A DNA stretch of 45,110 nucleotides from Candidatus Spechtbacteria bacterium RIFCSPLOWO2_12_FULL_38_22 (lineage in GTDB: Bacteria; Patescibacteriota; Minisyncoccia; Spechtbacterales; 2-12-FULL-38-22), in contig MHOK01000022.1 of the NCBI GenBank assembly GCA_001820055.1, forward strand, positions 1-45,110, in the 5' to 3' direction. This document shows, in pieces, positions 13,237-29,062 of this stretch. Under the pieces are notes generated by a model. It was not told the origin of the DNA. It saw only the letters and a program-made list of their open reading frames with translations, and made no database searches. The position numbers and the translations under genes were made by a program. Position 1 is the first letter of the stretch. Each line of letters starts with the position of its first letter.

Positions 13237-13447
13237 AATAGTTTGGATTTATACTGGAAATTCCGCCGTAAGCGGGAAAGAGCAAGCGAAGTAGAAATGC
13301 CTGAAGTGAGTAGGAAAAATGACTTGCCAGAGGCCTATCTTTTGCGATTAGCAAAAGTAGTTGTCATTTTTTCGTTAAATGAACGAAGTGCATTTGCTTG
13401 AGCGAGCGAATGGTAGTGTGGAATTGAAAGTATAAATCCAAACTATT
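13237..13447. repeat. 211-nt element with perfect 19-nt terminal inverted repeats, a long imperfect hairpin
   Basis: AATAGTTTGGATTTATACT (13237-13255) pairs with AGTATAAATCCAAACTATT (13429-13447). The interior is partly self-complementary (GAAAAATGAC/GTCATTTTTC, CTTTTGC/GCAAAAG). The right repeat covers the gatB stop codon. Confidence 0.8.
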
Positions 13448-14966
13448 TCAGTTTCTTCTTTAGAAGTTTTTCTGCTACTTGCGGATTTGCCGCCCCTTTA
13501 CTGCGCGCCATTACTTGTCCCACTAAAAACTTAAGCGCCTCTTCTTTGCCCTCTTTATAGTTTCTTACCGCGTCTTCATTTGCTTCTACTATTTCCTGTA
13601 CAAACTTCCCTATTACATCCTCGTCGCTTACTTGTTTAAGTCCTTTTTTTTCTACAATTGCAGACGGTCCTCCTCCGCTGTTAAACATAGCTTCTAAAAC
13701 TTCCCTAGCGCCCGCACTGTTTATTTCTCCTTTGTGAATTAAACAAATAAATTCTCCGAAGTTTTCTGGAGTGATTTTAATATCTTCTACTCTGGTGCCA
13801 GTATCCTGTAATAAAGTTCGCAGATTTTTTACCACATAATTTGTCGTAAGAATTTTTATTTTTTCTTCTGTTTGTGTTAAAACTTTCTTTTTAGCCAAAA
13901 TTCCTACGGAAGAATTAACAGACGCGCAACTTAATGCTTCTGACACAGATTTTTCAAAGTAATCTGCCAAATCGGACTCTTCAATTAAAACATCTACTAT
14001 ATCTAAGGCGTGGTCGTATTCAGTTTGAAAACGATTGCGCTTGGCTTGCGGTAATTCAACCATTGATTTTTTCATTTTATCCAAATCAAATCCATGTTCT
14101 CGACTTATAATTATCGGTGGCAAATCCGGCTCTGGAAAATATCTATATTCTTGAGCTTCTTCCTTGCTTCTCTGTGAAAAAGTTTCTTGGCGCATTTCGT
14201 CCCAACCCCTTGTTTCCTGAACTATTTTTTCTCCTGAATCTAACAACCTGGTTTGTCTGTTAATTTCGTATGCGGTCGCATCCTCCACCACGCGAAGCGA
14301 GTTAAGATTTTTTAACTCTACTTTTGTTCCAAGAATTTTTGATCCTGCGGGAGCTAAAGACAAATTAACCTCTACCCTCATCTGCCCCCTTTCCATGTCA
14401 GCATCTGAAGTACCTAAATAACGTAAAATTAAACGAAGTTCTTTTGCAAACTTTATCGCCTCAAAGGCGCTACTGATAACGGGTTTAGTAACTAGTTCCA
14501 TCAAGGGCACCCCCGCGCGATTAAAATCTACTAAGGAGTATGTATTATCTTGGGAATGTACAAGACGCCCCGCATCTTCTTCTAGATGTATGCGTTCTAT
14601 GTCTATCCTTTTATATTCCCCTCCCAGTTCACTCTTAATAGGTATATCTATGTAACCACCCAAACAAAATGGAATATCGTACTGGCTTATTTGGTAACCT
14701 TTTGGAAGGTCTGGATAAAAATAATTCTTTCTATCAAATTTACTTTCTCCGGCTATTTGGCAATTTAGCGCTAGTCCAACTTGTATGACTTTATTTATTG
14801 CTTCCTTGTTTGCAACAGGTAAAACGCCGGGATGTCCCATGCAAACCGCGCACACATTGGTATTTGGTTCTGCATTAAGATGGTCATTTAAAGAATCACA
14901 AAACATTTTAGTTTTGGTCTTTAGGTGCGCATGAATTTCGAGTCCTATTGTCGGGATATATTTCAT
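13443..14966 (-). CDS. gatB: Asp/Glu-tRNA amidotransferase subunit B
   Basis: 507 aa. N-terminus MKYIPTIGLEIHAHL...KMFC is typical of GatB, with a C-terminal YqeY-like tail. Confidence 0.93.
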   Translation of the reverse strand: MKYIPTIGLEIHAHLKTKTKMFCDSLNDHLNAEPNTNVCAVCMGHPGVLPVANKEAINKVIQVGLALNCQIAGESKFDRKNYFYPDLPKGYQISQYDIPFCLGGYIDIPIKSELGGEYKRIDIERIHLEEDAGRLVHSQDNTYSLVDFNRAGVPLMELVTKPVISSAFEAIKFAKELRLILRYLGTSDADMERGQMRVEVNLSLAPAGSKILGTKVELKNLNSLRVVEDATAYEINRQTRLLDSGEKIVQETRGWDEMRQETFSQRSKEEAQEYRYFPEPDLPPIIISREHGFDLDKMKKSMVELPQAKRNRFQTEYDHALDIVDVLIEESDLADYFEKSVSEALSCASVNSSVGILAKKKVLTQTEEKIKILTTNYVVKNLRTLLQDTGTRVEDIKITPENFGEFICLIHKGEINSAGAREVLEAMFNSGGGPSAIVEKKGLKQVSDEDVIGKFVQEIVEANEDAVRNYKEGKEEALKFLVGQVMARSKGAANPQVAEKLLKKKLK

Positions 14967-15002
14967 AACTTAATCTTATCAACAAAGGCTAACTTTCTCA
15001 AT

Positions 15003-15027
15003 AAAAAATCCCGCTATTTGCGGGATT
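15003..15027 (-). terminator. Rho-independent terminator after thyX
   Basis: AATCCCGC-AAATA-GCGGGATT followed by a T-run on the minus strand. It overlaps the stop codon. Confidence 0.75.
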
Positions 15028-15997
15028 AAAGTTGTTCTGAAATCATTCCTAGTTCTGCTATCTTATCTACAAATTCGTTGCTTTCTCTCTGATTATCAAA
15101 CCTTTTAAAAGCTAGGTCAAATGCTTCTTGTCTGCTTTTTGGCCACTCGTGTGCCTTAATTAATTCTTTCTCAGGACCTGAAAGACGCGTGGCATTTAAC
15201 TGATAATCTTCAAATGCTGAATAACAAATTGGAAGCGCATCTTTCACTATTTGCGCCATTGCGTTTGCAAACACCTGAATCTCATACTGAGCGTGACTAT
15301 CCATACGCAAAGTCAAAAAGTGCATTAAGTTGTGTAAATCAATCTTCCAATACCACTCTGTGTAATTAGCCAACGAAAGACCTATGCGGGCAAGTTCTCG
15401 AGCCAAATCGAAATCTTCACCAACAAACTCTCGATAATGCTCGTAAGTACGTTCATAGTCTTGCTGAAGCAACTCTAAAACTCTTTTTTTCTTTTCAGAC
15501 GAGAGCTCTTCGCCTCGCCCTTGTCGATTTCCTTCTGCTTGCTTTGAAATAACAGAGCTATCAGGCAGGTAGAATTCGTTACTCATAATAGAATAGCGTC
15601 CAGAGTATTCATTAATGTTAGCTGTTCTGTGCCGAACCCATTGACGAGCAACAAAAATGGGCATCTTACAGTGAAACTTAAATTCTACCATTTCAAATGG
15701 AGTGGTATGCATATGACGACGCAAATATCTGATTAGGCCTCGTGTAGTATTTACTTTTGTAGTGCCTTGACCGTAAGACACACGCGCAGCTTGCACAACA
15801 GAATCATCGTTGCCCATATAATCTACAAGATAAATAAAACCGTGATTTAAACATTCAATCGGCCTACCAAGCCAATATTCAGCACCTTCGCTAACAGGAC
15901 GCAGGGTCTTAAGTTCTTCGTATACAGCAATCCTTTGTGGTTCTTCGCTCATAACCCCGACCTCCCCCTTTCTTGGTTGTGGGTTTTGTGTGGTCAT
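15026..15997 (-). CDS. thyX: Flavin-dependent thymidylate synthase ThyX
   Basis: ThyX motif RHRTANINEYSGRY. The ATG at 15997 forms an ATGA overlap with the tmk stop and is preferred over the track start at 16030. Confidence 0.9.
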   Translation of the reverse strand: MTTQNPQPRKGEVGVMSEEPQRIAVYEELKTLRPVSEGAEYWLGRPIECLNHGFIYLVDYMGNDDSVVQAARVSYGQGTTKVNTTRGLIRYLRRHMHTTPFEMVEFKFHCKMPIFVARQWVRHRTANINEYSGRYSIMSNEFYLPDSSVISKQAEGNRQGRGEELSSEKKKRVLELLQQDYERTYEHYREFVGEDFDLARELARIGLSLANYTEWYWKIDLHNLMHFLTLRMDSHAQYEIQVFANAMAQIVKDALPICYSAFEDYQLNATRLSGPEKELIKAHEWPKSRQEAFDLAFKRFDNQRESNEFVDKIAELGMISEQL

Positions 15998-16701
15998 TGT
16001 TTGACCAATAGTGCTTCTAATTCTTTCCAAATTATATCACCTATATCTTGTGCGCTTAGTATTCCGCTGCCGGAAGAACAATCCACTAACGTAAACTGAT
16101 CTGGATATACGACCGACAAACTTCTGTAGGAGTCCGCGGCGCTAAACAGATGACCCATGTCTTGTTCGTGGATATCGCGTTTTTTACCAGCTAAATATTC
16201 GCGCTCACCCTTCTTACCCACTAACTCGTAAGCCACATTGGGGTCTAAATACAAAATTATATTTATATCCGGTTTGGACAACTGTAAAAATTCATACTCC
16301 AGCCATAAAAGTTTATCCCAAAACCTTTCACGTTCTTGTGTATCTTGTATTTTACCACCCTGATGTCCTAAATTAGAAGCCACATAACGGTTAGATAAAA
16401 CTATTTTCCCGCTCTCCAACCACTGTCTAATCTGATCTGCAGCTTGTTTTCTGTCAAAGGCAAACAAAAGAGACGCCGCTTCTGCTCCAATGTCTTTTAA
16501 ATCACCCAACTCTCCGTTTAAATACATTCGTACTGGCGCAGAAGATACATCGTCGTAACGAGGAAAATCAACTAATTCTACATCATGTCCTTGACTTTCT
16601 AATCTCGCTTTCAATACCTCTGCCTGAGTTTTTTTGCCGACACCATCTATTCCCTCAATAACGACAAATAATCCTTTTTTACTCATTTTTTCTTCTTTCA
16701 T
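15994..16701 (-). CDS. tmk: Thymidylate kinase
   Basis: P-loop VIEGIDGVGKKTQ and the tmk-like DRY-type block (LSNRYVASN). Confidence 0.9.
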   Translation of the reverse strand: MKEEKMSKKGLFVVIEGIDGVGKKTQAEVLKARLESQGHDVELVDFPRYDDVSSAPVRMYLNGELGDLKDIGAEAASLLFAFDRKQAADQIRQWLESGKIVLSNRYVASNLGHQGGKIQDTQERERFWDKLLWLEYEFLQLSKPDINIILYLDPNVAYELVGKKGEREYLAGKKRDIHEQDMGHLFSAADSYRSLSVVYPDQFTLVDCSSGSGILSAQDIGDIIWKELEALLVKQ

Positions 16702-16765
16702 GTCAAAGGTCTAAATAGTTTATACATTATTTTTTTACCCAATACAAACAGCATGTGTGAATAAA

Positions 16766-17194
16766 CTAAACCAACCCAGAACTGCCAAATCCCCTTTCTC
16801 CTCTAACTTCGTTTTCCTCAATCTTTTCTACCTCTACAATTTCCGCCCGCAAAACAGGCTTTATAACTAACTGCGCAATTTTTTCTCCTTTTTTAACTTT
16901 GTAAATTTTTCTACCTAAATTAGTAAGCGCTACATGAAGCTCTCCGCGATAATTAGAATCAATTACCCCAGCAAGCGTGGTAACATGATTTTTTATAGAA
17001 ATACCGCTTTTATCCCAAACAAAACCAGCGTGCCCATTTGGTACAGCAACCTTTAAACCCGTAGCAATTATTTCCCTTGTATCAGGTTTAATTTCTACGT
17101 CATGACAAGAAAAAAGATCCATACCCGCGTCCCCCTCATATGCATAAGAAGGCAACTTAGCTGATGGATCTATTTTTTGAAAATATATTTTCAT
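16766..17194 (-). CDS. dut: dUTP diphosphatase
   Basis: Motifs GDAGMDL, AGVIDSNYRGE and RGERGFGSSG. The track start at 17215 is a TTG, so the ATG at 17194 is preferred. Confidence 0.9.
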   Translation of the reverse strand: MKIYFQKIDPSAKLPSYAYEGDAGMDLFSCHDVEIKPDTREIIATGLKVAVPNGHAGFVWDKSGISIKNHVTTLAGVIDSNYRGELHVALTNLGRKIYKVKKGEKIAQLVIKPVLRAEIVEVEKIEENEVRGERGFGSSGLV

Positions 17195-17198
17195 ATTT

Positions 17199-17696
17199 TT
17201 AGCTTTTATCTTCAAGTGCTCCTCCGGGTCCTTTTAAAATTTTCTTCATTTTATCAAATGTTGCGTCAAAATTTAAATCTATTCTTACAAATTCCACATT
17301 GTTGTCCTGCGCTAATTTTTCTACTATACCCTTGCCCCTAGAATTACTGTACTCCCCAACATGTTTTATAGATTTTACGCCAACAGCGATTAATTTTGTG
17401 GTGCATAAAACACATGGAGTACCTAAAACATATGCGGTAGAACCCTTCAAGTCTGAGGTGCTATAAAGAATCGCATTATCTTCTCCGTGGAGAGTTCTTA
17501 TACAATGCCCATCTTCCATTAAATGTCCGTCCTCATCGCACTGAGGATTATTAGGTAAAGAACCGTTATAACCAGCCCCCACAATTCTGTTATCTTTAAC
17601 TAAAAGAGTCGCAGATTTTAATCTATCGCATGTACCCCTTGTAGAATACACATGAGCTAACATAAAAAAGAATTCGTCCCAACTTGGTCTTTCCAT
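17199..17696 (-). CDS. dCMP deaminase (ComEB/DCTD family)
   Basis: Zinc motifs HGEDNAI and PCVLCTTKL. The ATG at 17696 (MERPSWDEFF...) is preferred over the longer track ORF. Confidence 0.85.
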   Translation of the reverse strand: MERPSWDEFFFMLAHVYSTRGTCDRLKSATLLVKDNRIVGAGYNGSLPNNPQCDEDGHLMEDGHCIRTLHGEDNAILYSTSDLKGSTAYVLGTPCVLCTTKLIAVGVKSIKHVGEYSNSRGKGIVEKLAQDNNVEFVRIDLNFDATFDKMKKILKGPGGALEDKS

Positions 17697-17818
17697 AAAA
17701 TTACAGTAAATTACTTCTTGGAATATTATTCTATCACTTCTACAACCAAAAAGCATTCCACAGGGGAATGCTTAGATTATTTATTATGGATTATTAGCCT
17801 CTTAGCTTTTTTAGATTT

Positions 17819-18486: not shown

Positions 18487-19032
18487 TTATATTTTAGTTA
18501 TTTGCAAGTAGTCAAGCTCAACCGGAGTTTCGCGCCCAAACATGTTCACTAAAACATTTATTTTCCCTTTTTCTTCGTCCACGCTAGAAACTTTTCCATC
18601 AAAATCTTTAAACGGACCGTCGTTAATTTTTACCACGTCACCCACCTTCGCGTCAATCTTATGACGAGGCTCATCAATACCCATTCTTTTTTGTAGTTCA
18701 TCTATTTCTTGTTTTGACACAGGAATCGGGGTGGTGCCTGAACCAACAAATCCCGTAACGCGCGGTGTATTTCTTACAACGTACCAAGAATCATCTGTAA
18801 CAATCATTTCAACTAACACATAACCTGGAAAAATACGCTCTTCAATAATATGACGCTTTCCACTCCTTATTTTTATCTTCTTTTCTTTTGGTACTATTAC
18901 ATTAAAAATTTTATCCTGCATTCCCAAGGATTCTATTCTTTGAAGTAAATTCTGCCGAACAGCATCTTCGTATCCCGAATATGTATGGATTACATACCAC
19001 TTTCTTCCTCTTTTTAATTTTTGTTTTGGCAT
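18487..19032 (-). CDS. nusG: Transcription elongation factor NusG
   Basis: NGN domain (WYVIHTYSGYE) and a KOW motif (GDVVKINDGPFKDFDGKV). Confidence 0.95.
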   Translation of the reverse strand: MPKQKLKRGRKWYVIHTYSGYEDAVRQNLLQRIESLGMQDKIFNVIVPKEKKIKIRSGKRHIIEERIFPGYVLVEMIVTDDSWYVVRNTPRVTGFVGSGTTPIPVSKQEIDELQKRMGIDEPRHKIDAKVGDVVKINDGPFKDFDGKVSSVDEEKGKINVLVNMFGRETPVELDYLQITKI

Positions 19033-19582: not shown

Positions 19583-21808
<2,226 letters not shown>

Positions 21809-21823
21809 TTATAACAAATATAC

Positions 21824-22471
21824 TTATAAATCGTTGTAGCTGATACTTTTAATGTTTTCCTCTTTTAAAACTGGCTGTAGTTCTATTATACCCTGGTAAT
21901 CTTTTTCTCTTGACTTGTTAAAAGCTGAGGCAGAATTAGGGTCATACTGGCCCGGATGCACGCATAACTCGTAGGTACCGCCCGCCTGCATTTGTTTTAA
22001 AAATTTATTCATTTCCGGCCAGTTAAATTCCCAATATTTTCCACCAAAACGAAAAAAGGGTTGCGGAGTATTTTTTGTTTTTATATTTTTCTGTCCATGA
22101 TTTCTTATGGGTAAATTGTGTTCATCTGCAAATTTAGTTGCCTCATCAGAACTTTCTATAAACTTATGCACATCTACGTGGCTGGGTCCAAATCCAAAAA
22201 TTTTTTTAAACAATTCGTATTGGCGAGCTATTTCTTTTTGGTCCAAAATAGACTCCGCTCTTGATTTTGACTCTACATGTAACCCAATGCTTATGTTTTT
22301 TTGAGTATTTAATTTCTTTAATCTTTGTATTTGTTCTTTCTGTTCATCGGTTATCCAATTTACCAAAACTGTGGTAGATTTTATAAAATCCTTCTCCAAC
22401 AAATCTAAAATTTTTTCGTTAAATACCTTGCTATAACCAAAATCATCCGCGTTTATTATTAGTTTAATCAT
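21824..22471 (-). CDS. YdjC/ChbG-family carbohydrate deacetylase-like protein
   Basis: N-terminal LIINADDFGYS motif, 215 aa. Confidence 0.7.
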   Translation of the reverse strand: MIKLIINADDFGYSKVFNEKILDLLEKDFIKSTTVLVNWITDEQKEQIQRLKKLNTQKNISIGLHVESKSRAESILDQKEIARQYELFKKIFGFGPSHVDVHKFIESSDEATKFADEHNLPIRNHGQKNIKTKNTPQPFFRFGGKYWEFNWPEMNKFLKQMQAGGTYELCVHPGQYDPNSASAFNKSREKDYQGIIELQPVLKEENIKSISYNDL

Positions 22472-22488: not shown

Positions 22489-23616
22489 TTATCGTAACTC
22501 TGCGTTAAATTGTTCAGCTGTTTGGTTGTAAACCTTTTCCTGAATGTCATTAACTTCTTCATTTGTAAGAGTGCGCTCGTTGCTTCTATAAATAATTCGG
22601 TAGGTATAACTTATTTTGTCTTTTCCAAATTTTTCTTCATTTGCATATTTATCCAAAAGCTCAACTTCTTCAACTAAATCGCCACCAATGTCTCGAATAA
22701 GGTCAAAATAATCGTTTGGCACAAATCCTTTATCCACGATAAAAGAAACATCTCTTGGGGCAGGAGGGTACTTACTAACCTCTTCAAATTTGTTGCCAAG
22801 ATGAAGTTGTTTTTTGATTCTATCATCCTCAGACCACAATAATCTGATGTCGGGCAAATCCGTACTTAACATAGCAAGGCGCTCTAGCCCAAAACCAAAA
22901 GCCCATCCATTATATACGTCGGGATCTACGCCCAAATTTTTAAGGACAACACCGCGCACCAAACCGCTTCCCAAAACCTCTAACCAATTGCCACGAACCT
23001 TTATTTCTAATTCAACACTGGGGTCTGTATATGGAAATTCGTCCACGTTAAAACGGTGTTCAATGTCATCTCCATAAATTTTTCTAGCTATTTTTAAAAG
23101 GATATCCTGCAGATCTTGGATTGTAATAATCTTTTTGTTTTTTGGAGTAAGATACCATCCGTCTATTTGGTGAAACACATTCATGTGCTGACGATCCAGT
23201 TCGTCTCTGCGATATACTTTTCCATATGCGATAGCTCCAACGGACATACTGTTTTTTATCTTCTGTTTTACTGCTTCCGCCATTAAATGGTAATACCACA
23301 TAATAGTAGTATGGGTACGCAAAATATGCTTCTCATCTGCATAATAGGTATCGGATTTACTGCGCGCTGGATGATCTTTAGGGAAATTAAATAAATCAAA
23401 ACTAATATCGGCTCCAACAATTTCTGGTATGTTCACAATATCAAAATCTTTAAAATCCGGAAGTTCTAATACCCGATGTACAATTTCTGCTATGGGACTG
23501 CCCTCCTTTCGCGACAAATCAGGCATACTTAAAAAACGCTTTATGCGTTTACTATTAGTATCATCCTTATTTTCAAGAGATTTTTTGATTTTTTCCTCTT
23601 CCTCAAAAGTGACCAT
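22489..23616 (-). CDS. pheS: Phenylalanyl-tRNA synthetase, single-chain type (PheS catalytic core fused to an FDX-ACB anticodon-binding domain)
   Basis: Motif 2 YRRDELDRQHMNVFHQIDG and motif 3 GWAFGFGLERLAML. C-terminal SKYPPAPRDVSFIV...YRIIYRSNERTLTNEEV matches FDX-ACB. The ATG at 23616 is preferred because upstream track codons overlap a promoter. Confidence 0.88.
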   Translation of the reverse strand: MVTFEEEEKIKKSLENKDDTNSKRIKRFLSMPDLSRKEGSPIAEIVHRVLELPDFKDFDIVNIPEIVGADISFDLFNFPKDHPARSKSDTYYADEKHILRTHTTIMWYYHLMAEAVKQKIKNSMSVGAIAYGKVYRRDELDRQHMNVFHQIDGWYLTPKNKKIITIQDLQDILLKIARKIYGDDIEHRFNVDEFPYTDPSVELEIKVRGNWLEVLGSGLVRGVVLKNLGVDPDVYNGWAFGFGLERLAMLSTDLPDIRLLWSEDDRIKKQLHLGNKFEEVSKYPPAPRDVSFIVDKGFVPNDYFDLIRDIGGDLVEEVELLDKYANEEKFGKDKISYTYRIIYRSNERTLTNEEVNDIQEKVYNQTAEQFNAELR

Positions 23617-23623
23617 CTTATGT

Positions 23624-23652
23624 ATTTTAACGCATTTTAGGAGTAAAAACAA
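23624..23652 (-). promoter_or_regulatory. Putative pheS promoter, possibly giving a leaderless mRNA
   Basis: Minus strand TTGTTT-17 nt-TAAAAT, then 7 nt, then the ATG at 23616. No Shine-Dalgarno sequence. Confidence 0.4.
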
Positions 23653-23685
23653 GTGGATATTTTAACGACTATTAGCCTACTATAG

Positions 23686-23720
23686 GGTTGCCAAGCAACC
23701 CTATAGTAGGGTGTCAACTC
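23686..23720. repeat. Palindromic element (TATAGGG family), copy 2, intergenic
   Basis: CCTACTATAGGGTTGC-CAA-GCAACCCTATAGTAGG, with 16-nt arms. Confidence 0.85.
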
Positions 23721-23926
23721 ATAGGTTATAACTGACTTCAACTCTCTCCCTTCGAACTGGCTTTTCTAATCGCCTCATATGAGGTTGAGGCGATTAGAAA
23801 ACGGCTCAACTTTCCGCCGACTGGCGGATTGAGCCGTTTAATTTCTTAAAATTTCACCCTTGTATACAAAAATTCCACTCTGCCACAGGGTAACCCTGTG
23901 GCCATGTAGTAAAGTGCTGAGTAATA

Positions 23927-23957
23927 CAAAAGCCCCTCGACAAGTTCAGGGCTTTTT
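23927..23957 (-). terminator. Rho-independent terminator
   Basis: Minus strand AAAAAGCCCT-GAACTTGTCG-AGGGGCTTTTG. Confidence 0.6.
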
Positions 23958-23965
23958 ATTCTCGT

Positions 23966-24070
23966 TTAGTGCTTCTTTTTCTCTCGCTCTTGAATTTCGT
24001 GCCATCTGCGCATTAGTTCCTTCAATCTTTTTGTAGTACGGTTCATGCTTGCAATCTCTTCCTTTGTCAT
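23966..24070 (-). CDS. Hypothetical 34-aa basic helical mini-protein
   Basis: My own translation is MTKEEIASMNRTTKRLKELMRRWHEIQEREKKKH. It is preceded by AAAGAGGGAAAG and followed by a terminator. It is below the ORF-track size cutoff. Confidence 0.35.
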   Translation of the reverse strand: MTKEEIASMNRTTKRLKELMRRWHEIQEREKKKH

Positions 24071-24129
24071 TGCCACTTTTAATCTTTCCCTCTTTAATAC
24101 TTCTAAAGCGATCATAACATACTATTAAA

Positions 24130-24152
24130 ATACCCGTCAAAGTGACGGGTAT
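24130..24152 (-). terminator. Rho-independent terminator after the ACAD-family gene
   Basis: ATACCCGTCA-CTT-TGACGGGTAT followed by TTTTAAT on the minus strand. Confidence 0.75.
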
Positions 24153-24156
24153 AAAA

Positions 24157-25761
24157 TTATCTAAGGTATGTGCTTTCCAATTGTTCAAACTCCCCGTCAG
24201 CAATTGCAAAAGCTCTCCTAACAACCTCATCACTCACATCTGAAAACTCTTTTGCGCCATAACGACGCCCTGCCAAGATAATCGTTGCTCCTTCCAAAGA
24301 TCCAAATGCTTCTGTTGCCGCAAAATATGGCGCGGGAAGATTTCTTGGATTTTCAATAGGATATTTAAATATAATCTGCTGTAAGGTGTTAAAAAAACGC
24401 ATGCGTCTTTCATAAACCCCTGCTCTATAAGCGACGTCATCCCAAGCATTCATATCTCTAAAGTTATAAACAGCAAATGGCCAAATTCTTACAACATCGT
24501 GCGGTTCAGCGGTAAGTACGCCAGACTGAATTGCTTTCAAAAACCCGCGGGCAACAAGCATGCTTTGAACTTGACTCGTCCCTTCGTAAATTGCTGTTAT
24601 GTAAGAGTCATTAAGAATTCTTCCAATAGCATAGTCCAAAATGTAGCCATTACCGCCAAATACCTGAAGTCCTTGTGTTGCAACCTTGCGTACATATTCT
24701 CCGCAAACCAATTTAGCAAGAGAGGCTTGAGCGTCATATGGACGCGAATCACCAGAAGGAAATTCATCTTTCATTGTAGAAGACTGAAGAGTAAGAGCCC
24801 ACATGATGCGATTGCGCGCTTCCATGTCAAGCAATAGTCCATCACGAATTGCATGTTTTTCATAAATACTTTGGCCAAAAGCTTTGCGTTCTTTTGCATA
24901 TCTCAATGCCTCATCATATGCAGATTCGCCAATACCCACAGCTTGCCCTGCAATTACCGTAGCACGAGAATCACACAAAGTTGTCAGATTAACCTTTCTG
25001 TAGCCATCGTGCAAAGGACCAAGAATTGCAAAAGCTGGGGTTTCGGTAAATATCATTTCGGTTGTAGGAGAATGAGTTAATCCAAGCTTATGTTCATTTT
25101 TGCTTGTATCAAGTGCGCCTCTGGCACGCTCCTCGTCACAATCTACAATAAACACGGTCATTCCTGTATCTTCATTTGCTTCATGCATTTGAGGATCAGA
25201 GATTGCAAGCACTAGCGCATAGTTTGCTTTCCACCCACCCGTAATAAAGCGCTTTGTGCCGGTAATACGCCAAATACCATCTTGACCCAATACGGCCTTG
25301 GCTCGAATTCCTGCGACATGGCTTCCAGCTTCTCCTTCGGTTTGAGCAAAACATCCATCTTTACCAGCTAAAAGTTCTGGCGCAAGCTGCGCTTTAAGAT
25401 CTTCGCTTCCGAAGTTAAAAAGTGGCGCGTTAAAAAGTGAATTGCCGGCACCCACAGAAAGTCCAAGGTCAGCAGCTCCGGGAACACGACACACTTTTCG
25501 AGTAAATGAAGTCAACATACGCGCAGTTATCTGTTCTCCGCCATACTTTTGCGGAATTGCAAACGCGTGTGTGCCAAGTTTTTGAAAAACTCTTACAGAC
25601 TCGTCAAAAACTTCTTCGCTAAGCTCGTGATGTTGTAACGCACGGCTGGCAAGCGGTTTCAAATCCCTTTCACAAAAATCGTCAAAGACCTCGTCCATTT
25701 CGTTTTCACCTTCGCGCGTAGTGAACAACTTATCGGCAGTTAATACCACATCTTGCGTCAT
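24157..25761 (-). CDS. Acyl-CoA dehydrogenase-family flavoprotein, long form of 534 aa
   Basis: ACAD blocks CFAQTEGEAGSHVAG, GTKRFITGG, FGGNGY and IYEGTSQVQ. The ATG at 25761 follows the Shine-Dalgarno AAAGGAG. The track's longer N-terminus runs through an upstream terminator. Confidence 0.85.
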   Translation of the reverse strand: MTQDVVLTADKLFTTREGENEMDEVFDDFCERDLKPLASRALQHHELSEEVFDESVRVFQKLGTHAFAIPQKYGGEQITARMLTSFTRKVCRVPGAADLGLSVGAGNSLFNAPLFNFGSEDLKAQLAPELLAGKDGCFAQTEGEAGSHVAGIRAKAVLGQDGIWRITGTKRFITGGWKANYALVLAISDPQMHEANEDTGMTVFIVDCDEERARGALDTSKNEHKLGLTHSPTTEMIFTETPAFAILGPLHDGYRKVNLTTLCDSRATVIAGQAVGIGESAYDEALRYAKERKAFGQSIYEKHAIRDGLLLDMEARNRIMWALTLQSSTMKDEFPSGDSRPYDAQASLAKLVCGEYVRKVATQGLQVFGGNGYILDYAIGRILNDSYITAIYEGTSQVQSMLVARGFLKAIQSGVLTAEPHDVVRIWPFAVYNFRDMNAWDDVAYRAGVYERRMRFFNTLQQIIFKYPIENPRNLPAPYFAATEAFGSLEGATIILAGRRYGAKEFSDVSDEVVRRAFAIADGEFEQLESTYLR

Positions 25762-25798
25762 TTTGGCTCCTTTTGAATTGTTACTAGGTTCTGCGCCA

Positions 25799-25827
25799 AG
25801 TGTAGCATAAAAAAACTTCAATTTCAA
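25799..25827 (-). promoter_or_regulatory. Putative promoter of the ACAD-family gene
   Basis: Minus strand TTGAAA-17 nt-TACACT. Confidence 0.4.
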
Positions 25828-25861
25828 TCCCCCACACAAATAAAATAACCCCCAAATTAAT

Positions 25862-25885
25862 AAAAAACTTGCCATATTTGGCAAG
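25862..25885 (-). terminator. Rho-independent terminator after the 56-aa ORF
   Basis: CTTGCCA-AATA-TGGCAAG followed by TTTTTTATT on the minus strand. Confidence 0.7.
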
Positions 25886-27631: not shown

Positions 27632-29062
27632 TTAATTACCAACTGCTTTTTCGTACGCCCGTGCAACGTCCAGTACAAAGAAGTCTCTTTTTTGTGGACC
27701 GGTTATCTGCATACCAACTGGAAGATTTTTGCCTTCTTCCTTTATTATACCAATGGGTATTGAAATTGCAGGAACTCCTGCCAAATTTGCGTTTACTGTA
27801 TAAATATCGCTCAAATACATCTCAAGTGGATTTTTGGTTTTTTCACCGAATTTAAAAGGTAAAGTTGGAGTAGTTGGAGAAATAATTACATCCACCTTGG
27901 CAAATGCATTCTCGTAGTCTTTCTTTATAAGAGTGCGTACCTTTTGAGCTTTTAAATAGTAAGCATCGTAATACCCCGCAGACAAAGTATATGTTCCAAG
28001 CATAATACGACGCAAAACTTCCTTGCCAAAACCTTTACCCCTAAGTTCCGCATAGTCCTCTATTAAACTTTTCTCTGTATCTTGAACCAAATGTGTTCCA
28101 TATCTTATACCATCAAATTTTGCTAAATTACTAGAAACTTCTGCAGGCATAATAATATAGTAAGCAGCAAGTCCAAAATCTGCATATGGAAGACTTAATT
28201 CTTCTACGCTGGCTCCCATTTTCTTATAAACATCAACAGCCTCGTATATTTTATCTCGTATACGATTATCTAAGCCCTCTCCAAAATTTTCCTTAATTAT
28301 ACCTATACGTAAATTTTCTATATTAAACTTATTTTTAGGTTTATCTATCTCCCGCGAAGTCGAATCCATTACATCCTTCCCGATTAAACACGAAAAAACC
28401 AATGTGGCATCATCTACTGTTTGGGTAAAAACTCCTATCTGGTCTAGAGAAGAAGCCATGGCTATAAGTCCGTATCTAGAAACCGCACCATAGCTTGGCT
28501 TAAAACCAACAACCCCACAAAACGCAGCCGGCTGACGAATACTGCCTCCGGTATCTGATCCCAACGCAAATGGCGCAAGGTCTGCCGCTACGGCTACCGC
28601 AGATCCGCCACTTGATCCACCCGGAACACGAGATACATCATGAGGATTAGAACTTGGCCCAAATGCAGAGTTTTCAGTTGAAGAACCCATGGCAAATTCA
28701 TCCATATTAGTTTTTCCTAAAACCAAAGCTCCAACATTACGTAATTTAGAAACCACCGCAGAATCATACCCTCCATTATAATTTTCTAATATCATACTGC
28801 CTGCAGTTGTGGGCATATTCTCAACTAAGATATTATCTTTCAAGGCATAAGGAACTCCATACAAGGGTTGGGTTTTAAAATTTATATCAGAATGATTTTT
28901 GTCCGCAATTTTAGCTTCTTTTTTTATTCCTTCTTCGTTTACATACAAAAAACTATGCAGTTGTTTATCTTTTTTTTTGATATTCCCCAAATAAAAATCT
29001 GCTAATTCCAGACAGCTTATTTCTTTGCTCTGTATTTTTTGTAAGACTTGTTTAAGGGTCAT
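27632..29062 (-). CDS. gatA: Glu/Asp-tRNA amidotransferase subunit A
   Basis: Amidase signature GGSSGGSAVAVA, 476 aa. Confidence 0.95.
   Translation of the reverse strand: MTLKQVLQKIQSKEISCLELADFYLGNIKKKDKQLHSFLYVNEEGIKKEAKIADKNHSDINFKTQPLYGVPYALKDNILVENMPTTAGSMILENYNGGYDSAVVSKLRNVGALVLGKTNMDEFAMGSSTENSAFGPSSNPHDVSRVPGGSSGGSAVAVAADLAPFALGSDTGGSIRQPAAFCGVVGFKPSYGAVSRYGLIAMASSLDQIGVFTQTVDDATLVFSCLIGKDVMDSTSREIDKPKNKFNIENLRIGIIKENFGEGLDNRIRDKIYEAVDVYKKMGASVEELSLPYADFGLAAYYIIMPAEVSSNLAKFDGIRYGTHLVQDTEKSLIEDYAELRGKGFGKEVLRRIMLGTYTLSAGYYDAYYLKAQKVRTLIKKDYENAFAKVDVIISPTTPTLPFKFGEKTKNPLEMYLSDIYTVNANLAGVPAISIPIGIIKEEGKNLPVGMQITGPQKRDFFVLDVARAYEKAVGN

Follow-up and report, generated by a model that had tools for sequence, protein, structure and literature searches.

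Do bacteria ever charge tRNA-Phe with the one-chain phenylalanyl-tRNA synthetase (PheRS) that is thought typical of mitochondria? The question is raised by a gene at positions 22489-23616, on the minus strand, of a stretch of DNA from Candidatus Spechtbacteria bacterium RIFCSPLOWO2_12_FULL_38_22: positions 1 to 45,110 of contig MHOK01000022.1, the whole of which (45,110 nt) we call the window. Textbooks, AARS Online and reviews of PheRS distinguish three types of the enzyme—the bacterial (alpha-beta)2 form, the archaeal/eukaryotic (alpha-beta)2 form, and a monomer typical of mitochondria—and the searchable literature treats the monomer as organellar. The gene in the window specifies a protein with the architecture of the third type, and we consider it highly likely that this is the organism's housekeeping PheRS, a one-chain enzyme of the 'PheRS-M' design that stands in place of the classical (alpha-beta)2 enzyme. 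Very probably, a large group of bacteria charges its tRNA-Phe in this way.

The gene and its product

The gene, the segments of its product and the region 5' of it are as follows.

22489-23616, minus strand: coding sequence of the single-chain PheRS, an intact open reading frame (ORF) of 375 aa from the ATG at 23616 to the TAA stop codon at 22489-22491
23500-23616, minus strand: N-terminal segment, residues 1-39, with short helices predicted by AlphaFold2 at residues 5-15 and 20-30, and no match to PF02912
22807-23499, minus strand: class II PheS-type catalytic core, residues 40-270 (Pfam tRNA-synt_2d)
22777-22806, minus strand: interdomain linker, residues 271-280, directly preceding S281-K282, with a predicted local distance difference test score (pLDDT) below 50 at residues 275-280
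22492-22776, minus strand: anticodon-binding domain of the FDX-ACB (B8) type, residues 281-375 (Pfam FDX-ACB)
23617-24156, minus strand: leader 5' of the gene, about 500-540 bp, hairpin-rich, with a promoter-like site at 24140-24111

Formally, the ORF spans 22489-23652, with a TTG start at 23652; homologs align from the ATG at 23616. Pfam matches residues 40-270 to tRNA-synt_2d (E 3.7e-55, 187.5 bits) and residues 281-375 to FDX-ACB (E 1e-24, 87.2 bits), and finds no Phe_tRNA-synt_N coiled coil in the protein, a domain that is found in the canonical PheS of a related candidate phyla radiation (CPR) genome. An earlier note on this DNA, made from the letters alone, had described just such a product—375 aa, a class II PheRS core, no PheS coiled coil, and a C-terminal FDX-ACB domain of ~95 aa—and the description holds in all its parts.

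Among NCBIfam models, the protein scores 262.3 bits with pheS_mito (TIGR00469), 4 bits above the cutoff of 258.35; 168.3 bits with bacterial pheS (TIGR00468), under the cutoff of 237.45; and 242.2 bits with SrmL (NF051887), under the cutoff of 300. Its match to pheT_bact is restricted to the last ~110 positions of that model. Its scores, marginal in the case of pheS_mito, place it with pheS_mito and FDX-ACB, as the note had supposed, and not with bacterial pheS. Across the family, TIGR00469 scores straddle 258.35, from 264.3 (P0121) through that of the window protein to 244 (P0089), and eukaryotic members score 300-430. The best phmmer matches in the Protein Data Bank are human mitochondrial PheRS (mtPheRS), at E ~1e-62, with bacterial PheS at 1e-40 or weaker, and PheT matching through its last domain only. 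The strings of human FARS2 that the note had quoted prove accurate, lying opposite DLPDIRLLWSEDDRIKKQL and NDYFDLIRDIGGDLVEEVELLDKY of the window protein in the phmmer alignment to 3CMQ/8P8X, and its version of the E. coli PheT C-terminus (ISRFPANRRDIAVVV, LFDVYRGKGV, SRTLEEEEI) was essentially right. Database labels for the protein conflict: 'hypothetical protein' at NCBI, 'PheRS alpha chain' at JGI.

The leader (23653-24157) holds several perfect hairpins and a small ORF of ~50 codons. Rfam has no match, to a T-box or to any other leader RNA, in the region 5' of the gene.

Predicted structure and functional residues

An AlphaFold2 model based on 32 members of the family has a pLDDT of 88.5 and a predicted template-modelling score of 0.83, with low confidence confined to residues 141-143 and 275-280. 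Its top Foldseek matches are structures of human mtPheRS (3CMQ, 5MGH and 8P8X). The predicted model superposes on 3CMQ, a closed state, over its full length (388 columns, template-modelling (TM) scores 0.77/0.72), a comparison with FARS2 that the note had proposed; bacterial PheS chains superpose on the core only.

The core contains HPAR at residues 82-85, motif 2 (GKVYRRDELDRQHMNVFHQIDGW) at 132-154, the Phe-pocket loop FPY at 194-196, and motif 3 (NGWAFGFGLERLA) at 236-248. Residue by residue, the window protein and FARS2 have R136, H149, Q150, G216 and R246 in common, along with HPAR, FHQ and GWAFG. One catalytic or pocket change is systematic: the FPF of the loop that sandwiches the phenyl ring has become FPY. 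This FPY (window 23029-23037) occurs in all Paceibacteria members of the family, in the code-25 forms discussed below, and in SrmL; eukaryotic FARS2 has FPF. In an enzyme that lacks an editing domain, a loop of this kind could affect discrimination between phenylalanine and tyrosine.

Human mtPheRS reads G34 of the anticodon by means of Asp364, Phe366, Ser375 and Arg414, of which Phe366 is the equivalent of T. thermophilus Tyr-beta731, and its hinge is Ser322-Lys323 (PMC7540514). Read off the phmmer alignment to FARS2, the equivalents of the tetrad in the window protein are D322 (22651-22653), Y324 (22645-22647), S336 (22609-22611) and the C-terminal R375 (22492-22494), and S281-K282 aligns with the human hinge. 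All four residues of the tetrad are kept in the eight family members compared, and they are invariant or near-invariant across the family.

The locus

If the one-chain protein serves in place of the classical enzyme, where are pheS and pheT? Canonical pheS-pheT operons of other CPR genomes, retrieved by a motif scan and a PheT-alignment scan, point to the answer: what lies 3' of pheT there is orthologous to the gene found beside the fused gene. The anchors in the window are these.

19583-21799, minus strand: gyrB, the downstream anchor, which directly follows pheT in pheST-bearing CPR genomes
21824-22471, minus strand: YdjC-like gene between the fused gene and gyrB (Pfam YdjC, 79 bits)
18487-19032, minus strand: nusG, the second downstream anchor, 181 aa, of equal length in Nealsonbacteria and Sungiibacteria
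27632-29062, minus strand: gatA (amidase), the upstream anchor; gatC-gatA lies ahead of pheS-pheT in Nealsonbacteria, and ahead of the fused gene in Sungiibacteria
17199-17756, minus strand: dCMP deaminase, in the far end of the conserved block (13443-17756)
15994-16701, minus strand: tmk, in the far end of the block
15026-16030, minus strand: thyX, in the far end of the block
13443-14966, minus strand: gatB, in the far end of the block

The gene orders can be set beside those of two complete chromosomes (x and dots stand for other genes).

Nealsonbacteria CP179891.1: gatC-gatA-x-x-pheS-pheT-gyrB-secE-nusG-rplK-dCMP deaminase-thyX-x-tmk-x-gatB
Sungiibacteria CP066690.1: gatC-gatA-...-fused-x-gyrB-x-secE-x-nusG-..-rplK
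Window, minus strand: gatA-x-(tRNAs)-acyl-CoA dehydrogenase-fused-ydjC-gyrB-..-nusG-..-dCMP deaminase-tmk-thyX-gatB

Nealsonbacteria CP179891.1 likewise has dCMP deaminase, tmk, thyX and gatB downstream of pheST-gyrB-nusG. The fused gene occupies the pheS-pheT slot of a block that is conserved on both flanks. In a sample of 81 loci—the window and 80 species genomes, ±10 kb each—gyrB adjoins the fused gene in 56, co-oriented in 39 and divergent in 17; among CPR pheST loci it lies directly 3' of pheT in 6 of 13. The fused gene is single-copy in each of the 81, and their flanks, 1.31 Mb in all, contain no PheT and no second PheS. What is shown is the absence of pheT from the ancestral locus and, as the next section describes, at the level of the named lineages.

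Several features of the block stand apart from this. Between the gatA block and the PheRS gene, the window has an acyl-CoA dehydrogenase-like gene (24157-25884, minus strand, 535-575 aa), unusual for a CPR genome and lying in a region with a G+C of 0.42 against ~0.37; the Nealsonbacteria and Sungiibacteria chromosomes lack it at the corresponding position. The N-terminus of the window's GyrB (~21650-21730, minus strand) has a triple tandem repeat of the peptide (L)TASNAQAG ahead of the conserved ATPase domain, and the Sungiibacteria ortholog (L285 12174-15515) carries an intein instead. On the Nealsonbacteria chromosome, a LAGLIDADG homing-endonuclease gene sits just 5' of pheS, inside the conserved block (L284 7993-8673).

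Distribution among CPR bacteria

The host is a CPR bacterium of the Paceibacteria, and its mitochondrial-type gene, as the note had claimed, is that of a bacterium: the neighbours are ordinary bacterial genes (gyrB, nusG, gatA, gatB, ligA, thyX, tmk and dCMP deaminase) and four tRNA genes. A chimeric assembly, a frameshift product or eukaryotic contamination would be suggested by nothing but the unusual architecture, and, as an explanation, is next to impossible. The same two domains recur in more than 7,000 database clusters, some of them on closed chromosomes, and the genes around the window's copy (gyrB, nusG, gatA/B, ligA, thyX) are compact and bacterial, as are the tRNAs; on these grounds, artefact was rejected. 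The nearest homologs all have the same two domains and all come from metagenome-assembled genomes (MAGs) of CPR/Patescibacteria.

Lineage names are attached to a minority of matches only. Among the matches listed, those with the fused gene are Yanofsky-, Azam-, Giovannoni-, Doudna-, Brenner-, Zambryski-, Nomura-, Colwell-, Kaiser- and Sungiibacteria, and canonical PheT occurs in the CPR lineages Nealson-, Portnoy-, Magasanik-, Uhr-, Komeili- and Falkowbacteria, 'Pacebacteria' and Minisyncoccales; no name appears in both sets. In an attempt at refutation, PheT was sought with a query from a genome that has pheST and that clusters, in GyrB, with the Doudnabacteria-like genomes carrying the fused gene; no Doudnabacteria PheT was among the matches listed. 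In a comparison of 44 genomes, conservation of the fused protein matches that of GyrB, at a mean p-distance of 0.37 against 0.33. Exact-peptide patterns found no close relatives on IMG/VR viral contigs.

Fused relatives

When 1.84 billion representatives were searched exhaustively with phmmer, only 293 proteins reached E <= 1e-30; they fall into five groups.

Group (a): the Paceibacteria family, which collapses to a single representative, P0121
Group (b): other bacterial monomers, P0124 (from an Oligoflexia MAG), P0126 and P0125/P0127
Group (c): true SrmL, scoring 375-524 bits with NF051887 and including a copy on a Glutamicibacter plasmid
Group (d): eukaryotic FARS2, many sequences, with presequences
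Group (e): short FARS2-like proteins of 340-375 aa on huge-phage-like contigs

Group (c) bears on an explanation quite different from the one we favour, namely that the window protein is an accessory paralog, akin to the 'PheS-related mystery ligase' SrmL, with a specialised or non-translational role, and that canonical pheS-pheT lie elsewhere in the genome. SrmL has the same two-domain architecture, and the window protein reaches 242 bits with its model. One true SrmL (524 bits; L288 6830-7948) is encoded by plasmid pGnB68 of Glutamicibacter nicotianae (NZ_CP142605.1), an organism with a normal PheRS; the gene is annotated as hypothetical and lies immediately 3' of a Cmx/CmrA chloramphenicol efflux gene. 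An Oligoflexia MAG contains P0124, whose identity to the window protein is 44%, and both P0124 and the plasmid SrmL are probably accessory paralogs in genomes with normal PheST. The absence of pheT, moreover, covers the locus and the lineage rather than the genome.

The residues tell otherwise. True SrmL differs from the window protein at five positions of the pocket (H82S/N, F194H, G216E, W238L and F240L/S/M), and it lacks three of the four G34 contacts, as well as the C-terminal Arg; the window protein is of the FARS2 type at every position compared. Since its functional residues are of this type and its score is below the cutoff, the window protein is not SrmL. Against an accessory role, too, the gene takes the pheS-pheT slot of a block whose two flanks are both conserved; it is single-copy, near-universal in its lineages and conserved like GyrB; and, among the matches listed, none of the named lineages that carry it has PheT. 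A role as accessory paralog is, on this evidence, distinctly improbable.

At positions where G is the conserved residue, P0125 and P0127 have W, and the gene for P0127 (L287 9463-10833) cannot be translated under code 11. For both of these reasons, their hosts are probably code-25 CPR bacteria, in which UGA specifies Gly (Gracilibacteria/Absconditabacteria-like), and the sequences suggest that the monomer occurs in this CPR class, too.

Genes for the short FARS2-like proteins occur at L286 6001-7047 (on a 340,874-bp scaffold), L289 7001-8065 (on a 160-kb contig) and L290 7001-8074, and the 635-kb uncultured phage LR745206.1 has a FARS2-like copy at 613869-614858. The contigs concerned are dense with small, co-oriented ORFs and encode phage-type PhageMetallopep, PcfJ, DNMK and PTH2.

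Origin of the fused gene

How did the fused gene come to replace pheS-pheT? Our trees are rough, being neighbour-joining on corrected p-distances. In the tree of the core, made from 97 sequences and 198 columns, the fused forms of every kind (bacterial, eukaryotic, phage-borne and SrmL) stand apart from all canonical PheS in 100 of 100 bootstraps. Inside this clan, the Paceibacteria family, the code-25 forms and P0124/P0126 make up a branch that is sister to the eukaryote/phage/SrmL branch. The mitochondrial affinity that the note had read from the sequence stands, with a refinement: the window protein lies outside ordinary bacterial PheS and in one clan with FARS2, at 100% bootstrap, and its group is sister to the eukaryotes, not nested among them. 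The FDX-ACB tree has the same shape, with weak support (39%).

The simplest local history would be a deletion within pheS-pheT that joined PheS to domain B8 of PheT, an independent CPR invention in which the mitochondrial likeness reflects convergence and fast evolution. The fused gene lies exactly at the former position of pheS-pheT; the gap between the two genes is ~13 bp in relatives, so that one in-frame deletion could yield the fused architecture; and the C-terminal tail of PheS, DLRSFFENDLRFLKQF in E. coli, is retained as DIRLLWSEDDRIKKQL in the window protein. Against such a history, the fused forms never group with CPR PheS in the core tree (0/100), and the Paceibacteria FDX-ACB never groups with B8 of CPR PheT (0/100). 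Core identity of the window's family is higher to eukaryotic FARS2 (40%) than to CPR PheS (33%) or other bacterial PheS (36%).

L195 5281-7837 encodes a minimal canonical PheRS of a CPR genome, with a PheS of 241 aa that lacks the coiled coil and a PheT of 605 aa. This mini-PheS is an ordinary PheS, not an intermediate, and so provides no bridging form. The minimal PheRS is flanked by the same two genes (339 aa and 995 aa) as the fused gene of L034 and L060, with nucleotide identities of 78% and 67-68%. In seven Doudnabacteria-like genomes, a stand-alone ORF of 131-163 aa, resembling the B2 (tRNA-binding OB) domain of PheT, lies directly upstream of the fused gene, and not between core and B8. 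The seven ORFs are these.

L044 9462-9878
L045 9456-9866
L024 9412-9846
L020 2388-2816
L022 3537-3959
L056 9487-9978
L074 7672-8067

The B2-like ORF scores 105 bits with pheT_bact, at positions 38-152, against 84 bits with YtpR, and it may be a relic of a displaced pheT or a tRNA-binding helper that acts in trans; the window has no such ORF upstream of its fused gene. All in all, local invention is very improbable, and the core tree, the B8 tree and the L195 mini-PheS lead us to reject an in-situ deletion for now.

Because the fused forms are separate from canonical PheS, we favour displacement instead: a gene from an old monomeric lineage would have taken over from pheS-pheT, either at the original locus or next to it. 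One ancient replacement with vertical inheritance thereafter was also considered, and is unsupported, since the GyrB tree is interleaved and the distances for the fused gene and GyrB are only modestly correlated (Pearson 0.38, Spearman 0.14).

Where the monomeric lineage itself began is a further matter. A CPR ancestor could have acquired a nuclear FARS2 gene from a eukaryote, possibly by way of a virus, and the bacterial forms would then be uninformative about the origin of the mitochondrial enzyme. Many members of the fused clan are eukaryotic, the short FARS2-like genes on phage-like contigs could be vectors, and bacterial and eukaryotic branches that are sisters permit transfer either way. 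We think such an acquisition unlikely nonetheless: the core tree does not place bacterial monomers inside the eukaryotes, and the monomers are deeply diverse (Paceibacteria, code-25 CPR, an Oligoflexia MAG) and lack the insertion that splits alignments of eukaryotic FARS2 into two stretches. Tentatively, and with more doubt than conviction, we can imagine that the one-chain PheRS is no eukaryotic invention at all, but an old prokaryotic or viral lineage that serves much of the CPR as its sole PheRS and was the pool from which the eukaryotic mitochondrial enzyme was drawn, possibly via large phages or viruses; in the CPR, it would act as a cassette that can be exchanged with pheS-pheT at the locus of gyrB.

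Proposed role and significance

Replacement at the locus and conservation of the functional residues together lead us to infer that the window protein charges tRNA-Phe as a monomer, with no beta subunit. Judged by its homology with human mtPheRS, its class II core (motifs 1-3, HPAR, the FPY loop and GWAFG) would bind ATP and phenylalanine, form Phe-AMP, and then pass the Phe to A76 of tRNA-Phe. With S281-K282 as its hinge, the C-terminal FDX-ACB domain would swing out of a closed state into an open one, and would read G34 through hydrogen bonds from Asp322 and Ser336, stacking of Tyr324, and Arg375 at the C-terminus. Since a B3/B4 editing domain is missing, fidelity must rest on the active site or on factors that act in trans. 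Historically, a member of the old fused-PheRS clan—to which FARS2, the phage copies and the SrmL paralogs belong—would have displaced pheS-pheT beside gyrB in Paceibacteria-type CPR bacteria.

Several points weigh against a housekeeping role of this sort, or against parts of it. Architecture alone is no proof, since SrmL and P0124 share it. The pheS_mito cutoff is cleared by 4 bits only, and P0089, a close relative, falls below it. Throughout the family, Tyr takes the place of the second Phe in the FPF loop that sandwiches the substrate. The search for pheS and pheT spanned flanks of ±10 kb, and a canonical enzyme could be encoded elsewhere in the genome. In trees made by neighbour-joining on simple distances, the fused clan could seem more separate than it is through long-branch effects, and the GyrB tree, poorly resolved and with very short internal branches, interleaves genomes that have pheST with genomes that have the fused gene.

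If a major share of the CPR does translate with the monomer, then the bacterial heterotetramer, editing domain included, would be dispensable in free-standing cells, and in thousands of species clusters at that, some of them represented by closed genomes. Estimates of genome completeness in these lineages should then not treat pheT as a marker common to all bacteria. The origin of FARS2 would become testable with a rich outgroup of prokaryotic and phage sequences, and the family would provide a small bacterial model of FARS2, an enzyme relevant to disease. It would also raise the question of how fidelity is maintained against tyrosine and meta-tyrosine without editing.

Comparison with known systems

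In the openly searchable literature, we found neither a description of a monomeric PheRS in bacteria nor a paper that combines PheRS with Patescibacteria, and the supplements of the Minisyncoccus and Parcubacterium genome papers do not mention PheRS genes. One large study of CPR protein families assigned both subunits, alpha and beta, to one family; such clustering would mask the difference that the monomer makes.

The system most like the window protein is mtPheRS: human FARS2, yeast MSF1, the 'PheRS-M' of AARS Online. Both consist of one chain, a PheS-type core followed by FDX-ACB, with neither coiled coil nor editing domain; both have the SK hinge and the Asp/aromatic/Ser/Arg set for G34; and they match in fold over their full length (3CMQ, TM 0.77) and belong to one phylogenetic clan (100% bootstrap). 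They differ in that the window gene lies on a bacterial chromosome among housekeeping genes, and its product has no targeting presequence. Also missing from the window protein are the insertion by which FARS2 alignments are split, between motifs 2 and 3, and the N-terminal 'GRNLH..HPL' motif of the eukaryotic and phage forms. It has FPY rather than FPF, its core is ~40% identical to FARS2, it falls on a sister branch, and its family scores 244-264 with the pheS_mito model, around the cutoff of 258.

SrmL resembles the window protein in being bacterial, in having the same two domains (in ~350-420 aa), and in its place within the fused clan. With the SrmL model, however, the window protein reaches 242 bits, against 375-524 for true members, and SrmL is found on a plasmid and in non-housekeeping contexts.

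The short FARS2-like PheRS of phage contigs have the same architecture, a similar size (340-375 aa), no presequence, and a context of prokaryotic style. Unlike the window protein, they group with eukaryotic FARS2 and carry the N-terminal motif of the eukaryotic type; they are presumably auxiliary viral genes.

With the classical (alpha-beta)2 PheRS, finally, the window protein shares a homologous core, a homologous last domain (B8, which is FDX-ACB), the slot upstream of gyrB and, presumably, the reaction catalyzed. The classical enzyme needs two genes and ~1,000-1,150 residues, whereas the window protein needs one gene and 375 residues, and dispenses with the coiled coil of PheS and with B1-B7 of PheT, including the B3/B4 editing site and B5. 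It scores under the cutoffs of TIGR00468 and TIGR00472, and in trees it stands apart from all canonical PheS.

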